From positions 71,082 to 135,081 of the forward strand of contig OZ244742.1 in NCBI GenBank assembly GCA_965219415.1: a stretch of DNA of 64,000 nt, in the 5' to 3' direction. The notes under the pieces were generated by a model. It saw nothing but the letters and a program-made list of their open reading frames with translations, did no database searches and was not told the origin of the DNA. Source of the DNA: Candidatus Marinacidobacterales bacterium. Lineage in GTDB: Bacteria; Acidobacteriota; Vicinamibacteria; Marinacidobacterales; DATDRI01. The position numbers were made by a program, and so were the translations under genes. Below, piece after piece: positions 41,651-48,586 of the stretch (the first letter of the stretch is position 1; the number at the start of each line of letters is the position of its first letter).

Positions 41651-42625
41651 ATGAACGTCACAAAGAGCGTTGAGGGGAACGTGAGACTGGCTGGCTTAGC
41701 CATTCTGCTTACCGTGGTGGTGGGATGCTCGAGTCGTTCGTCGACGCCCTCCGTACCGTCGTTGCCGACGCCACCGTCTCCGCCTTCAGTACCGTTTCTC
41801 CCCTCTCCCCCTTCGACGACGCCACCTTCAAACCCGTCACCGAGTGAGCCTTCGACGTCCCCCTCCCGGGAAGAATCCAGCGAAGGAAAGGGAGCGGAAT
41901 CTGAATCGACGCCTTCCAGTGAAGATGGTGCGAAAGGTGAAGAGAGCGGGGACGGCTCGGCCTCGGGGACCGAAACGAGTGCCGAAGCCGGAGAGCAGCC
42001 TGGTGGCGGTCAGTCCAAAAGGGGTGAGGCGACCGGGTCCACACCGAGCGCCGCCGGGGCGGGCAAACTCGGTCAGGCCGGCTCGATGGGAAAGACTTCC
42101 GCAGGAACACCCCGGGCGGATGCTAAGTCCGGCGGTAGTTCGAAAGGCAGCGGAAGTGGACCCAAGACGACCGAAGAAAAACGCGCCGGCCTCGACAAAG
42201 ACTTGGACTCCTCGCTTAGCGAGTTCGACAAACTGCTCTTGAGCGAACAAGAGCTCTTGGAGCAGCAGCGAGAAGAGGCCGCAGCAGCGAGCGCTGACAG
42301 TGGTGACGGCGGGGACGGAGGAGAATCTGGCGACGGCGGTGCCGATGCTGAACGACGCGCCACCCAGGTCGCAGGTGGCACCGGTGGATCTCCAGATGCG
42401 CCCGCGGGAGAGCCGGCCGACTCATCTCCAGGCGCTCCCGTTGGAGGGGCCGAGGGTGACTCGGACAACGGTCGCGTCCCCCCCGACGTAGGCGACGGGA
42501 GCGGCGACGACATCGTGGCCCGGCAGTTGCGCGAAGCGGCCACACAAGAGGACGATCCGAAACTTCGTGAGAAACTATGGGAAGAGTACCGAGCCTATAA
42601 GCGAGGCACCAAGAAAGGGAGCTAA
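41651..42625 (+). CDS. Operon gene 1: lipoprotein with a long P/S-rich then acidic G/S/E/D-rich disordered region and a conserved-looking helical C-terminus
   Basis: ATG at 41651 with a GGAGAGG RBS. Signal plus lipobox MNVTKSVEGNVRLAGLAILLTVVVGC. C-terminus ..DDIVARQLREAATQEDDPKLREKLWEEYRAYKRG. Confidence 0.8.
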   Translation: MNVTKSVEGNVRLAGLAILLTVVVGCSSRSSTPSVPSLPTPPSPPSVPFLPSPPSTTPPSNPSPSEPSTSPSREESSEGKGAESESTPSSEDGAKGEESGDGSASGTETSAEAGEQPGGGQSKRGEATGSTPSAAGAGKLGQAGSMGKTSAGTPRADAKSGGSSKGSGSGPKTTEEKRAGLDKDLDSSLSEFDKLLLSEQELLEQQREEAAAASADSGDGGDGGESGDGGADAERRATQVAGGTGGSPDAPAGEPADSSPGAPVGGAEGDSDNGRVPPDVGDGSGDDIVARQLREAATQEDDPKLREKLWEEYRAYKRGTKKGS

Positions 42626-42628
42626 AGG

Positions 42629-43876
42629 ATGCCGAGCCAACGTTTCCTACCCCGCATGCTGATGGCGCCTGCTTTTATTGTCGTTCTTGCCGCACTGGGG
42701 TTCCTGACCGCCTCGCCCGCGCAGGCTGGAAAGAAAGATCCGGTTGTGCTCATCCAAGCGCGAACCGAGATTCCCGAGGAAGAGCTTCTCGATGTCGGCA
42801 TCCGGGTGTTCGATCCCGGTCTGCCGGAAGACGATGAGGCCCTCTTTGCCCTGGAAGAAAAAGGTGTCTTTCCGGAGATTCGGGAATCCGAAGCACGATA
42901 CATCCCCTTCCAGCTGATGCAAACCCTCCAGTCCACGGGTTACTGGGGCGCGGTTCGTGTGGTCCCGGCTACAAACGCCGTCGATGTCACGGTCTTCGGG
43001 ACCATCCTGAAATCGAACGGGAAGAGATTAGAAATCGCGATCTCGGTCGTAGATTCACGTGGCAAGCAATGGCTCAACGAGGAATACAAACGCGAAGCTA
43101 GCGTGGGCGCCTACATAAAAAAAAGAGGGGTTGTCGAGCACCCGGATCCTTATCAGTCTCTGTACAACGAAATCGCCAACGACCTTCTCGAGAAGCGGCG
43201 AAAGCTCGATCAAGAAGACATCCAAGAAGTGCGCCTGCTGTCGCAGCTCAAGTTCGCGATGGACCTAGCGCCCACGCCGTTCGAGGACTACCTGAAGATT
43301 GACAAGAAAGGGCGCTACTCGATCCGGAAGCTCCCAGCGGTCGACGATCCGATGATGGTGCGCGTCAACAACATTCGCGAACGGGATTTCATGTTCATCG
43401 ACACGCTCAACGAGTTCTACGCCAACTTCTACGCGACGATGGGCGAGGACTACGACGGTTGGCGGGCCGAAAGCTACAAAGACCAGGATGCGTTGGACAA
43501 GGCGAGAAAAGAGGCGTGGATTAAGACGCTCGCCGGTGTCGCAGGGATTGTCGGAGGCGTAGTATCCAAAGACCCAGCGATTCGGGACGTCGGTCTGATC
43601 GGTGGGTCGGTTCTGATCAAGTCCGGAATGGACAGTTTCGGCGAAGCCAAGATGTACAGTGAGGATCTCAAACAGCTCGCCGCATCTCTGGACGCTGGGA
43701 TGGCACCGCTCCTCATCGATATGGAAGGCGAGGTCACACGACTCACCGGCTCCGTCGAAACTAAATACACGACCTGGCGTAATCTGCTTCGTAAAATCTT
43801 TGCTACCGAAACCGGACTCCCCATAGATCCCAACTCCGAGATACCGCTTGCCGAGCCGGGGCCATCCAATCCCTGA
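42629..43876 (+). CDS. Operon gene 2: secreted 415-aa protein of unknown function with a C-terminal glycine-zipper-like segment
   Basis: Signal ..APAFIVVLAALGFLTASPAQA. Mixed alpha/beta body. Segment ..LAGVAGIVGGVVSKDPAIRDVGLIGGSVLIKSG... Starts 3 nt after the gene 1 stop. Confidence 0.8.
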   Translation: MPSQRFLPRMLMAPAFIVVLAALGFLTASPAQAGKKDPVVLIQARTEIPEEELLDVGIRVFDPGLPEDDEALFALEEKGVFPEIRESEARYIPFQLMQTLQSTGYWGAVRVVPATNAVDVTVFGTILKSNGKRLEIAISVVDSRGKQWLNEEYKREASVGAYIKKRGVVEHPDPYQSLYNEIANDLLEKRRKLDQEDIQEVRLLSQLKFAMDLAPTPFEDYLKIDKKGRYSIRKLPAVDDPMMVRVNNIRERDFMFIDTLNEFYANFYATMGEDYDGWRAESYKDQDALDKARKEAWIKTLAGVAGIVGGVVSKDPAIRDVGLIGGSVLIKSGMDSFGEAKMYSEDLKQLAASLDAGMAPLLIDMEGEVTRLTGSVETKYTTWRNLLRKIFATETGLPIDPNSEIPLAEPGPSNP

Positions 43877-43895
43877 GGCCCGCGACCGGAGCTCC

Positions 43896-46181
43896 ATGGC
43901 GCTGGCCCGTGGTCAATCACTCGGCCGACGCTTTACTCTAATCCGTCCTCTCGGTCAGGGAGGAATGGGCGAAGTCTGGCTAGTCGAGGATCACGCGCTC
44001 GAAGAGCAAGTAGTCGTTAAAGTGCTCCCGCCAGATGATTCGCTAGGCTATTCCGAAGAACGCGTGGCGCTTCTCAAACGCGAGTGCCGGAACGCCCGTC
44101 GACTCGTTCACCCGAACATCGTGCGCGTTTACGACACGCACGAAGAAGAAGGCGTCCGGTTCATCTCCATGGCTTACGTCGAGGGGAAAGACATCGGTCA
44201 GCTTCGAGGCCATCCATTAGAAGACATTTTGGGCGCGGCCCTGCCGATTGCGCACGCTCTCGATTACGCGCACCGGCAAGGCGTCGTGCACCGCGATCTC
44301 AAAGCCGCCAACGTGTTGTTGGATCGGCACGGCGAGCCGCAACTTCTCGACTTCGGCGTGGCGGGGTTGCTCGACTCGCCGTCCGACCCCTCGGAGATTA
44401 CCGGTGGTGGATCGCCCTCCAGCATGAGCCCACAGCAACGTGCCGGCGACGAGCCGATGCGCGCCGACGACATTTATGCCTTCGGCACCCTCCTTTATGA
44501 TCTCTTGAGCGATCACCGGAAGCTGCCGGAGAATCTGACCTCGCTCTTGGCATCTTTGCTCAGCGAGGACGCTGCGGACCGCCCCAACGATATGGGCGAG
44601 GTCAAAGCAACGCTTGCGTCGATCAGGAAGTCGATCGTCGGGACAGCCGCTCAAATCGTCGAACCGAAGGTGCCTCCGAAAGTGAAGGTCACCCCGCCGC
44701 CACGCGTCGAGACCATTGGACCGGTAGCCACCTCTGCGGCTTCGCCGATTCAACCGAGAGTATCCTCGGGCGGCGGCGTCGGATGGCTGACCATCGCCAC
44801 ATTCGGGGTTCTCCTTCTCGCGACTATCGCGGTCTTTGTCTTCCTCCCCCGTTGGGTACCGGACCGGTCACCGCCCAGTCAAACTAAACAGGGTGAGACA
44901 TCGGCGGAGCGTCAAGAGGCTCGGCCTCCGGTTGTTTCCGACTTGCGGCAGGAAGCGGAGCTCAAGACACTCGCCGAACAAGCGCGCGAGACCGCCGTCC
45001 GCTGGCGCGATGAGCTCCAATTCAAGAGCGTCTCGATTTGGGGCGGCGATGAGTACCCCACCGCGATGGCAGCGCTCGAAACGGGTGACGAACAACTCCG
45101 CGCTCGGAAATATGAACGCGCTCTCGAGGGGTACCAAGAGGCGGCCGCGGGTTTCCAGTCCCTGTCCTCTCGAGCCGTCGAGGTTCTAAGTGAAGCCTTG
45201 GCGCAAGGACAGCGGGCACTCGACCGAGGTGACTCGGGCGCCGCCAGGGTCGCGTTCGAACTCGCCGCGAAGGTCGAACCGAACAATCGGGCCGCACTCG
45301 ACGGCCTCAGGCGAGCGGGCGTCTCCAATGAGGTCGTCTCTTTGCTCGCACAGGGTGCGGAGCACGAGAGGAATGGCGATCTGGCTCGAGCGGCCGACAC
45401 TTACAAGAGAGCGCTCTCCTTAGATTCTCGGTCCGAAACGGCCCGGGACGCATTGGGACGCGTCGAGCGAACGATGGTGGAAAGTGCGTTTCGAACAGCC
45501 ATGTCGGAGGGCTTCTCCGCCATCAACCGTCAAGATTACCGAGCCGCGCGCGAAGCCTTCCAAAAGGCGGGCAGCATCAAGTGGGGCGCCGCCCAGGTCG
45601 CAAAAGCCATCGGCGAGGCGGAAGAGGGCCTGCGGCTTCAAGTCATAGCCCTTCATCGCCAGAACGCTGCGGAGCTAGAGTCGAAAGAAGAGTGGCACAA
45701 GGCGGCCGAGCACTATGAGGCCGTGCTCGAGTTGGATGCCACGATTCGTTTCGCTCAAGAGGGCAAGAAAAAGACCGACCGGCGGGCGGCACTTTCGGAT
45801 CAACTAGACTTTCATTTCGAGAATGCGGGCCGCCTGTCCGACATCAAGGTGCTTCAAACCGCGTCGGCCATTCTCGATACCGCCTCGCAAATCGATCCCG
45901 CCGGACCGCGACTCGAACGACAACGAGCGGCGCTCGTCAAGATCATCGACGACGCTTCGACGGTCACTCGCGTTCAACTCCAATCGGACGATAAGACCGA
46001 AGTGGTGGTCTACAAAGTCGGCCGCCTCGGCAGGTTCGAGCAACATAGCCTCGAGCTTCGTCCGGGCACTTACACAGTAGTTGGAAGCCGGCCAGGCTAT
46101 CGCGATGTTCGCTTAAAACTGATCGTCGAAGCGGGAAAATCACCTGCCCCACTCGTCATCCGCTGTAAGGAAGAAATTTGA
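43896..46181 (+). CDS. Operon gene 3: Hanks-type Ser/Thr protein kinase, TM, periplasmic helical (TPR-like) region and C-terminal PEGA-like beta domain
   Basis: Kinase motifs LGQGGMGEVW, VVVKVL, HRDLKAANVLL and DFG. TM WLTIATFGVLLLATIAVFVFL. C-terminus ..LELRPGTYTVVGSRPGYRDVRLKLIVEAGKS... Confidence 0.88.
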   Translation: MALARGQSLGRRFTLIRPLGQGGMGEVWLVEDHALEEQVVVKVLPPDDSLGYSEERVALLKRECRNARRLVHPNIVRVYDTHEEEGVRFISMAYVEGKDIGQLRGHPLEDILGAALPIAHALDYAHRQGVVHRDLKAANVLLDRHGEPQLLDFGVAGLLDSPSDPSEITGGGSPSSMSPQQRAGDEPMRADDIYAFGTLLYDLLSDHRKLPENLTSLLASLLSEDAADRPNDMGEVKATLASIRKSIVGTAAQIVEPKVPPKVKVTPPPRVETIGPVATSAASPIQPRVSSGGGVGWLTIATFGVLLLATIAVFVFLPRWVPDRSPPSQTKQGETSAERQEARPPVVSDLRQEAELKTLAEQARETAVRWRDELQFKSVSIWGGDEYPTAMAALETGDEQLRARKYERALEGYQEAAAGFQSLSSRAVEVLSEALAQGQRALDRGDSGAARVAFELAAKVEPNNRAALDGLRRAGVSNEVVSLLAQGAEHERNGDLARAADTYKRALSLDSRSETARDALGRVERTMVESAFRTAMSEGFSAINRQDYRAAREAFQKAGSIKWGAAQVAKAIGEAEEGLRLQVIALHRQNAAELESKEEWHKAAEHYEAVLELDATIRFAQEGKKKTDRRAALSDQLDFHFENAGRLSDIKVLQTASAILDTASQIDPAGPRLERQRAALVKIIDDASTVTRVQLQSDDKTEVVVYKVGRLGRFEQHSLELRPGTYTVVGSRPGYRDVRLKLIVEAGKSPAPLVIRCKEEI

Positions 46182-48586: not shown

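Follow-up and report, generated by a model that had tools for sequence, protein, structure and literature searches.

Here we analyze a pair of adjacent genes in a 64,000-nt stretch of DNA from a Candidatus Marinacidobacterales bacterium (contig OZ244742.1, positions 71,082 to 135,081), which we call the window and whose coordinates are used throughout. The two genes, gene 3 and gene 4, sit in a run of nine genes on the + strand. A preliminary description, made from the sequence alone, presented gene 3 as a protein kinase with a periplasmic helical region and a PEGA-like end, and gene 4 as a membrane protein with an FHA-like N-terminus, a transmembrane (TM) helix, five tandem PEGA domains and a C-terminal domain of the formylglycine-generating enzyme (FGE) family without the catalytic cysteines. 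Pfam, hhalign and Protein Data Bank (PDB) profile searches bear out this layout, from the kinase to the PEGA-like end of gene 3 and from the TM helix to the FGE-type C-terminus of gene 4, and the kinase/PEGA/FGE-fold pair is confirmed as first observed. What is new here is that the kinase is optional, and that it has been repeatedly co-lost with one threonine motif in gene 4 and with the binding signature of the FHA domain of gene 7. The features of the two genes are the following.

43896 to 46181, + strand: gene 3, 761 aa, Hanks-type Ser/Thr kinase with one TM helix, a periplasmic helical/TPR region and a C-terminal PEGA-like domain.
43935 to 44528, + strand: kinase domain of gene 3, aa 14-211 (Pfam PF00069 Pkinase, E 2.8e-29, with 102.8 bits where the cut-off is 31.7).
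44691 to 44705, + strand: gene 3 aa 266-270, a juxtamembrane TPPPR with the pattern [PA]PP[RK] across the family, which may serve in docking.
44784 to 44846, + strand: TM helix of gene 3, aa 297-317, the strongest Kyte-Doolittle 19-residue window (maximum 2.53).
45342 to 45428, + strand: TPR_2 repeat, gene 3 aa 483-511, within the helical part that lies in the periplasm (Pfam E 7e-8, with 32.5 bits where the cut-off is 27).
45972 to 46163, + strand: beta domain at the C-terminus of gene 3 (about aa 693-756), PEGA-like by hhalign against the gene 4 PEGA repeats.
46178 to 46181, + strand: gene 3/gene 4 junction TTGA, where the TTG start of gene 4 (46178-46180) overlaps the TGA stop of gene 3 (46179-46181).
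46178 to 48586, + strand: gene 4, 802 aa, FHA-like N-domain, linker, TM helix, five PEGA repeats and cysteine-less FGE-fold domain.
46178 to 46462, + strand: degenerate FHA-like cytoplasmic domain of gene 4, aa 1-95 (remote homology; Pfam FHA below threshold).
46484 to 46495, + strand: Thr103-Asp-Pro-Pro (TxPP) in the cytoplasmic linker of gene 4, candidate phospho-acceptor or kinase-coupled site, from covariation.
46556 to 46576, + strand: second linker motif KPITFEP (P..F.P), gene 4 aa 127-133, independent of the kinase.
46628 to 46687, + strand: TM helix of gene 4, aa 151-170, a hydrophobic window with an Arg-rich stretch just before it.
46691 to 47737, + strand: five tandem PEGA domains, gene 4 aa 172-520 (Pfam PF08308, five stretches, E 3.3e-55, 184.3 bits against 20.8).
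47801 to 48574, + strand: FGE-sulfatase-fold domain without the catalytic cysteine pair, gene 4 aa 542-799 (Pfam PF03781, E 1.6e-37, 130 bits against 23.3).
47825 to 47866, + strand: family signature MGASRREPGRRANE, gene 4 aa 550-563, 14 residues, Arg-rich, at the start of the FGE fold.
48473 to 48526, + strand: segment RGSSWMDGSVTELRLSYR aligned to the FGE catalytic motif, with D772 at the first cysteine and V775 or E777 at the second.

Both families initially proposed for gene 4, PF08308 and PF03781, are found by Pfam above their gathering scores. The catalytic motifs attributed to gene 3 are all located: the GQGGMG glycine-rich loop at residues 20-25, the VVVKVL lysine at 39-44, HRDLKAAN at 132-139 and DFG at 152-154, so that with the alpha-C glutamate gene 3 has the Gly-rich loop, VxK lysine, HRDLKxxN and DFG of a Hanks-type kinase. 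These motifs are kept across the kinase-bearing orthologues, with the exceptions of L099 (Lentisalinibacter salinarum X77; HGD, DFA), L040 (GFG) and L027 (DFS). The last 65 residues or so of gene 3 match the PEGA repeats of gene 4 with an hhalign probability of 95.8% (E 6.6e-9, 62 columns), while in Pfam this C-terminal domain matches CarboxypepD_reg at an E-value of only 0.057.

The open reading frame (ORF) of gene 3 spans 43848 to 46181 (+), with an ATG at 43896 from which the protein begins MALARGQ. Gene 4 had been said to start inside the gene 3 stop, and the ORF coordinates at 46178-46181 agree; an AAGGAAG stretch lies upstream of the TTG start, at 46167-46173. The comparisons that follow take the gene 4 of the window as reference and use a close set of 16 orthologues and a wider set of 80 relatives. 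The wider set comes from a scan of 185,579 genomes, one per species, for the first nine residues of MGASRREPGRRANE, which gave 576 pattern matches and 550 confirmed gene 4 relatives, and the wider counts rest on the best 80 of those 550. Of 15 close loci, 12 keep the 4-nt overlap of stop and start, and an NTGA overlap is found in 44/80 of the wider loci (28 TTGA, 11 GTGA and 5 ATGA). In five more loci (L032, L040, L048, L052 and L061) gene 3 stops in a CTGA whose frame is that of gene 4, which suggests a CTG start overlapping the stop.

The best 80 relatives belong to the Acidobacteriota (Candidatus Marinacidobacterales, Holophagae, Thermoanaerobaculia and Vicinamibacteria) and to the Gammaproteobacteria (Pseudohongiella and Lentisalinibacter salinarum X77). 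In all 80 loci the gene immediately upstream of gene 4 is a homologue of gene 3; a TolQ-like gene is present in 77 and the first von Willebrand factor A (vWA) gene in 72, the misses being mostly at contig ends. In the 16 close loci all nine genes are syntenic. Gene 1 starts with a signal-like sequence that runs up to VVVGC, with Ser as the next residue (41651-41730), which is a lipoprotein-like lipobox; the products of genes 2 and 9 receive no assignment from the domain scan; gene 5 is a small protein; gene 6 is a MotA/ExbB/TolQ-like channel (MotA_ExbB, E 7.1e-14); gene 7 is an FHA protein (FHA, E 4.5e-10), described as Hsp70-like/FHA; gene 8 is a vWA protein (VWA_2, E 3.2e-7), and gene 9 is taken as the second vWA protein of the operon. 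At one locus, L047 (18.4 kb, with the contig continuing on both sides), genes 1-6 are present, and the sequence beyond the TolQ-like gene gives no match to gene 7, gene 8 or gene 9.

The association of kinase and gene 4 turns out to have two parts with different fates. The adjacency of the two genes holds everywhere, but the kinase domain itself does not: calling a kinase when phmmer reports E < 1e-10 upstream of gene 4, we find the domain in 22 of 75 scorable loci (23/76 with the window). L045, L050, L060, L067 and L080 are left unscored as their upstream region ends at a contig end. Elsewhere, gene 3 consists of a short cytoplasmic tail, the TM helix and the periplasmic region; Pseudohongiella species have this kinase-less form. 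To place these states on a tree we used the gene 4 core only (residues 176-802, which excludes the N-terminal traits; IQ-TREE quick search, LG+G4, 80 rows, leaving out L080, whose core sequence is empty). The kinase state changes 12 times on this tree, and the starred branches force at least 9 changes. In L041, L074 and L083, a kinase-less gene 3 keeps an N-lobe remnant of some 100-150 residues (phmmer E 3e-5 in L041 and 5e-5 in L074), so that at least some of the absences are losses in which the kinase decayed in place. By comparison of these sequences, the kinase domain appears to be an optional add-on to a periplasmic core formed by genes 3 and 4, and not the heart of the pair.

If the kinase comes and goes, what comes and goes with it? 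The answer is a motif of four residues. In a MAFFT alignment of the gene 4 N-terminal regions, scored at the column of Thr103, all 23 kinase-bearing sequences read T-x-P-P (TDPP, TEPP, TAPP, TVPP or TLPP), and only 1 of 53 kinase-less rows does. Counted over 9 independent pairs of the tree, the motif changes the same way as the kinase in 8, the opposite way in none, and is unchanged in 1 (sign test p 0.0078). Restricting to the 46 rows that keep the N-domain, the counts are 23/23 versus 1/23, and 7 same, 0 opposite and 1 unchanged in 8 pairs (sign test p 0.0156). An alignment-free count of TxPP anywhere in the linker gives 23/23 with the kinase and 3/23 without. As a control, the motif P..[FLY].P, found 25 residues downstream of TxPP in the same linker, does not covary with the kinase (21/23 versus 21/23, not significant).

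A second trait that follows the kinase lies in gene 7. The phosphothreonine-binding signature SRxH of its FHA domain (about residues 380-480) is present in 21/22 kinase-bearing rows and 4/46 kinase-less rows (L012 and L014 are left out of the gene 7 FHA alignment), and in 7 pairs it changes the same way in about 5.8, the opposite way in none, and is unchanged in about 1.2 (median p 0.031, range 0.031-0.0625). Several kinase-less loci have a gene 7 (342-366 aa) without any FHA domain. From this three-way covariation, gene 4 is probably a substrate of the kinase through Thr103 of TxPP, and the canonical FHA domain of gene 7 is likely to be the reader.

Covariation could also arise if TxPP were a docking motif for the kinase or for a shared adaptor, with the real substrate elsewhere, either gene 7 or the GGGS..SPQQ segment of the kinase (gene 3 residues 170-181, a family-specific activation segment), because covariation cannot separate docking from phospho-acceptance. 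Gene 3 has a proline motif of its own, [PA]PP[RK], which makes proline-rich docking a theme in the linkers of both genes, and in the TagR/PpkA system of P. aeruginosa the only PpkA target found, according to the available text of PMC13713981, is an FHA protein, Fha1. On the other hand, the threonine is invariant in all 23 kinase-bearing rows while the +1 position varies among D, E, A, V and L, and a threonine stands at this column in just 5/23 kinase-less rows that keep the N-domain, when a pure proline dock would not need it. We thus consider docking in place of phosphorylation unlikely, and return to Thr103 as the probable substrate.

The proline motif of gene 3 had its own turn as a candidate. 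TPPPR was considered as a second phospho-site and rejected: its Thr is not conserved across the family, where A, R, I, V, H, Q and S also stand in its place, and the motif persists in kinase-less gene 3 proteins. A proline motif for docking is the better reading. The pattern [PA]PP[RK] occurs in 35/44 loci with a gene 4 N-domain and in 0/30 without one, although with just 3 independent pairs the association is not significant. TPPPR may be a ligand of the FHA-like N-domain of gene 4.

That N-domain had been proposed as FHA-like, which would make gene 4 a direct substrate or reader of the kinase. The substrate half of the proposal is favored, as probable and by way of Thr103, by the covariation above; the reader half is not supported. 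By Pfam, the gene 4 N-terminus scores 15.5 bits with FHA (PF00498) against a gathering score of 20.7 (E 0.024), and 6 of the 16 close orthologues match at E <= 10, the best at 0.0026 and none at threshold. A profile of the 16 sequences has 17 matches at E <= 10 among PDB sequences; titin Ig modules rank first and second (E 0.012), and 13 of the 17 we take to be FHA-domain proteins (Rv1747, GarA, TB39.8, Ki-67, KIF13B). With a profile of 49 sequences the best match is the FHA domain of Ki-67 (E 0.0062, over profile positions 16-93), and 16 of its 23 matches at E <= 10, including EssC and EmbR, are presumably FHA-domain proteins as well. Compared directly with the gene 7 FHA domain, hhalign reports 72% (E 3.4e-5) in an alignment limited to the C-terminal 43 columns. 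Altogether, the fold is probably FHA-like.

The residues that would bind phosphothreonine are another matter. In the alignments to Rv1747 and Ki-67, the Ser and His of SxxH land on a variable column and on a Leu, and the Arg of GR on a Gly. The family consensus reads FPLxVGG...DI...EPLAHLG, with GR as GG or deleted and SxxH as x-P-L-A, and among the phosphothreonine-binding positions only the later Asn of VNG (N58) is kept. In the genus of the window, a 12-column deletion removes the GG..DI segment altogether. The comparison thus suggests a degenerate, phospho-independent and weakly FHA-like domain. That this domain is nevertheless a working FHA that reads a phosphothreonine made by the gene 3 kinase is favored by the Ki-67 and gene 7 matches just given, and by its presence in 23/23 kinase-bearing loci. 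It is also kept in 23/53 kinase-less loci, it does not follow the changes of the kinase (1-2 of 9 independent pairs change the same way, and 7-8 show no difference), no member reaches the Pfam FHA threshold, and the SxxH and GR residues are the ones replaced or deleted. A reader in gene 4 is, on balance, very improbable, and gene 7 is left as the likely one.

We turn now to the periplasmic end of gene 4. With a profile of the FGE domains of the 16 orthologues, the best solved relatives are human FGE (1y1e, E 5.5e-25) and bacterial FGEs (E-values up to 3.8e-21), and then PorK (E 1e-18, profile positions 76-270). The domain shares with FGEs (human SUMF1/FGE 1y1e; bacterial 6muj, 2q17 and 6s07) the same fold, the RG(G/S)S motif and the Cys of YC(T/N)W. 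It differs from them in sitting at the end of a membrane-anchored multi-domain protein, and in that both catalytic cysteines are replaced in 80/80 family members. The wild-type human FGE segment GGSYMCHRsyCYRYR aligns over GsswldgS..vtelr of the gene 4 family profile, which places the first catalytic Cys on D772 and the second on V775, or on E777 in an ungapped single-sequence alignment. Gene 4 hence lacks the copper-binding cysteine pair of the RGGSxxCxxxxC segment. It has three cysteines (57, 232 and 622), and a search for the catalytic pair elsewhere in the FGE domain finds only C622, in YCNW. None of the 80 family members has a Cys in the segment 755-795, and the FGE domain contains one Cys in 77 of them and none in 3. 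The loss of the catalytic cysteines, first noticed in a single sequence, is therefore a property of the family, and since the catalytic segment is free of Cys in all of these relatives, it is very unlikely that the head of gene 4 is a formylglycine-generating enzyme. No sulfatase turned up among the 12 ORFs scanned in the region.

The domain is under strong constraint all the same. Mean identity to the window among the 80 relatives is 0.59 for the FGE domain and 0.36-0.51 for the PEGA repeats, and mean column identity among the 16 orthologues is 77% for the FGE domain, when the protein as a whole has 66% and its N-terminal 140 residues have 47%. The signature MGASRREPGRRANE is invariant in 16/16 close orthologues and letter-exact in 54/80 relatives. 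The absence of cysteines together with the highest conservation within the protein supports the suggestion that the domain is a binding or scaffold module and not an enzyme. Such a pattern points to a constrained function other than that of an FGE, which by analogy with PorK, TagR and the variable proteins of diversity-generating retroelements (DGR) would most simply be binding.

Other members of the FGE superfamily, such as PvdO and EgtB, perform other reactions, and one could imagine that the head of gene 4 is an enzyme of a different chemistry, with a metal at His/Asp772 and Glu777 instead of at the copper-binding cysteine pair. Position 772 is His in 53/80 and Asp in 23/80 relatives (H or D in 76/80), and position 777 is Glu in 62/80, so that the conserved pair (48491-48508) could be a substitute metal or ligand site; the strong conservation that includes the Arg-rich MGASRREPGRRANE would agree with an active site, and NCBIfam has weak matches, of 40.8 bits to PvdO and of 15.7 bits to EgtB. 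These matches, however, are far under the curated cut-offs of 500 and 360, the Pfam scan has no DinB or other catalytic partner domain, the profile alignment places the second Cys on V775 and not on E777, and PorK, TagR and the DGR variable proteins show that it is common for an FGE fold without the cysteines to act as a binder. We regard another catalytic chemistry as quite improbable, and a binding head as the simpler account.

Putting these elements together, we propose a nine-gene envelope system composed of a lipoprotein, a secreted protein, genes 3 and 4, a small protein, a TolQ-like proton channel, an Hsp70-like/FHA protein and two vWA proteins. Genes 3 and 4, translated from overlapping frames, would be single-pass inner-membrane partners made in fixed proportion, and probably in physical contact in one complex. 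Its stable core would be periplasmic: on one side the cysteine-less FGE-fold head of gene 4 on a stalk of five PEGA domains, on the other the helical/TPR arm of gene 3 with its PEGA-like end. The head would form no formylglycine and would bind a conserved partner or envelope ligand, which could be the product of gene 1, 2 or 5, a vWA head or a polymer of the envelope. In the kinase-bearing form only, the state of the periplasmic assembly would set the activity of the cytoplasmic Hanks-type kinase, which would phosphorylate Thr103 (TxPP) in the cytoplasmic linker of gene 4. The canonical FHA domain of gene 7 would read the phosphothreonine and link it to the TolQ-like/vWA motor, while the N-terminal FHA-like domain of gene 4 would serve as a phospho-independent adaptor. 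We give about an even chance (roughly 0.5) to this model of a kinase-written Thr103 on gene 4, read by gene 7 and coupled to the motor.

Several points weigh against it. The covariation is evidence of coupling and not of phosphorylation, and is equally what a docking motif would leave. The usual ligand of an FHA domain is pT-x-x-hydrophobic or acidic, for which Pro at +2 and +3 of TxPP is atypical. The kinase call depends on the phmmer threshold, and the tree is the result of a quick search over mostly metagenome-assembled genomes. Four loci (L033, L036, L044 and L046) keep SRxH in gene 7 without the kinase. The sole kinase-less row with an aligned TxPP, L051, is in a genome, G016, that has two copies of the operon, L022 = L034 on contig C5 and L017 = L051 on contig C11, the former bearing the kinase; the kinase-less copy is also without gene 7 and gene 5, yet it keeps TDPP in gene 4, which raises the possibility of phosphorylation in trans. 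No phosphatase accompanies the kinase: the genome of the window has four PP2C_2 matches (contigs C1 and C2), all outside the window and none in the operon, so a phosphatase for gene 3, if any, would be encoded elsewhere. Finally, the conserved H/D772 and E777 leave room for a metal site or other chemistry in the head.

A bolder form of the model, which we hold to be rather unlikely, is that genes 3, 4 and 7 are a trans-envelope phospho-switch of an undescribed machine. In it a pillar, made of the five PEGA domains with the cysteine-less FGE fold on top, would span the periplasm and report its binding or mechanical state through the kinase; the kinase would place one phosphothreonine, at Thr103, on the cytoplasmic tail of the pillar itself; and the Hsp70-like FHA protein would read it and gate a TolQ-type 5:2 rotary motor with vWA rotor subunits. 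If true, it would be an independent re-invention of the logic of the type IX secretion system (T9SS), a 5:2 motor with an FGE-fold periplasmic partner, combined with a control by threonine phosphorylation in the style of type VI secretion (T6SS), and its regulatory layer would have been repeatedly shed in evolution.

By analogy, the closest worked precedent is the TagQ/TagR/PpkA/Fha1 pathway of the H1-T6SS, with PorK also close. In P. aeruginosa, the periplasmic TagR, of the FGE-sulfatase superfamily, and the lipoprotein TagQ are modelled to bind and dimerise the Hanks kinase PpkA by its periplasmic domain (PMC13713981, as far as the available text goes). As described there, an FGE-superfamily protein in the periplasm goes together with a single-pass Hanks kinase, a co-encoded lipoprotein, which gene 1 would parallel, and a cytoplasmic FHA protein, and the FGE fold is used for protein binding and not for catalysis. 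Genes 4, 3 and 7 likewise bring an FGE-superfamily protein, a Hanks kinase and an FHA protein into one locus. The differences, compared by description and not by sequence, are that TagR is soluble whereas gene 4 is an inner-membrane protein, its FGE fold anchored there by way of five PEGA domains, with a cytoplasmic tail of its own that bears a candidate phospho-site, and that unlike PpkA the gene 3 kinase has a TPR/PEGA-like periplasmic part. Also, the nine genes of the operon include no PP2C phosphatase, no TagS/T-like ABC pair and no T6SS structural gene, in contrast with the TagQRST-PpkA-PppA-Fha1 locus; a TolQ-like channel and vWA partners are there instead.

The likeness to PorK/GldK (PDB 9mzu, 9ots; TIGR03525) is in the use of a structural FGE-sulfatase fold in the periplasm, beside a proton-driven motor of the MotA/ExbB/TolQ kind. 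PorK is without the FGE cysteines and is paired with the PorLM motor. GldK is the best NCBIfam match of gene 4, at 94.3 bits where the TIGR03525 equivalog asks for 350, and over profile positions 218-404 only. Unlike PorK and GldK, gene 4 has no lipoprotein signal, and begins with a cytoplasmic region of about 150 residues followed by the TM helix; among the operon neighbours there is no match to GldL/M/N (PorL/M/N).

The topology of gene 4 is in turn reminiscent of that of YscD/PrgH, the inner-membrane ring proteins of the type III secretion system (T3SS), which also have an FHA-like cytoplasmic domain without phosphopeptide-binding residues, one TM helix and tandem periplasmic beta domains. 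PF16697 (Yop-YscD_cpl) matches 4 of the 16 orthologue N-termini at E <= 10, the best at 0.0061 and below threshold. The periplasmic part of gene 4 is different, PEGA and FGE-fold instead of ring-building motifs, and there is no T3SS context. As for the remaining operon, TolQ-like genes with paired transpore-helix vWA proteins have been described (PMC12204202, Mol Biol Evol 2025), and genes 6, 8 and 9 are in that arrangement, with genes 3 and 4 as fixed neighbours. The main text of PMC12204202 nowhere mentions kinase, FGE, PEGA or sulfatase, which places the gene 3/gene 4 pair and the phospho-relay outside that description, to the extent of its main text.

A kinase next to an FGE fold could also belong to a conflict or anti-phage operon, in which the FGE-fold (FGS) domain senses the invader and the kinase signals, as in kinase-NACHT-FGS proteins and vWA ternary systems. 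FGS domains have been discussed as non-enzymatic binders of invaders (PMC7159879); PADLOC has kinase models that match the kinase domain (PD-T4-6 at 6.9e-52, and mad6); and of 53 longer relatives, 28 have a kinase and an FGE fold fused in one chain, these fusions being distant (24-34% identity) and mostly with NACHT-like domains. The PADLOC matches, however, cover the generic kinase fold only, and gene 4 has none. Gene order and content are kept across two phyla, the FGE head is highly conserved and not diversifying, and Pfam scans of the operon report no DGR or effector domain. An anti-phage role is extremely improbable, and we continue to favor the envelope system.

In terms of novelty, we found no publication joining PEGA with FGE-sulfatase or sulfatase-modifying factor, nor one that has TolQ, von Willebrand, FHA and kinase in one operon. 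The operon is widespread, with 550 gene 4 relatives in Acidobacteriota and Gammaproteobacteria, and the literature that we found covers its TolQ-like/vWA part only. It is usually difficult to find what a bacterial Hanks kinase phosphorylates, and for that reason a site predicted by repeated co-loss is useful: here covariation, from sequence alone, points to one threonine of gene 4 as the kinase-coupled site and to the FHA domain of gene 7 as its reader. The head of gene 4 would be a third case, after PorK and TagR, of a non-catalytic FGE fold used as a periplasmic binding module beside a motor or a kinase. There is also a caution for annotation: distant relatives bear names like "formylglycine-generating enzyme" and "SUMF1/EgtB/PvdO family nonheme iron enzyme", which would mislead if transferred to the gene 4 family.

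Some smaller observations complete the description of the locus. All the kinase-bearing sequences have GGGS..SPQQ, an unusual activation segment, where the APE region would normally be. In the C-lobe (44400-44560), a block of about 23 residues of the PPFWPD... type is absent from 11 of the 23 kinase-bearing sequences, including the window, and present in the others. Two other ideas were tried and rejected. Glu802, considered as a ligand for the metal ion-dependent adhesion site (MIDAS) of a vWA domain, is invariant in the 16 close orthologues but is the last residue in only 57/80 relatives. And a Rosetta-stone fusion of genes 3 and 4 was found in none of the 53 longer, distant relatives.

Closer to the window, we looked at 41 genomes, its own and 40 relatives, in three families. 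Full-length gene 4 is present in 5 of the 8 genomes of the window's family and in none of the 16 of a third family, which has small genomes. In the second family it is found in 14 of 17 genomes, with one more copy split in two adjacent pieces and one fragment. The split copy, L026 (G010:C12:215996-218309), matches gene 4 in two stretches that cover query residues 25-422 and 414-801; it may be a pseudogene, or the split may come from a frameshift or an error of assembly.

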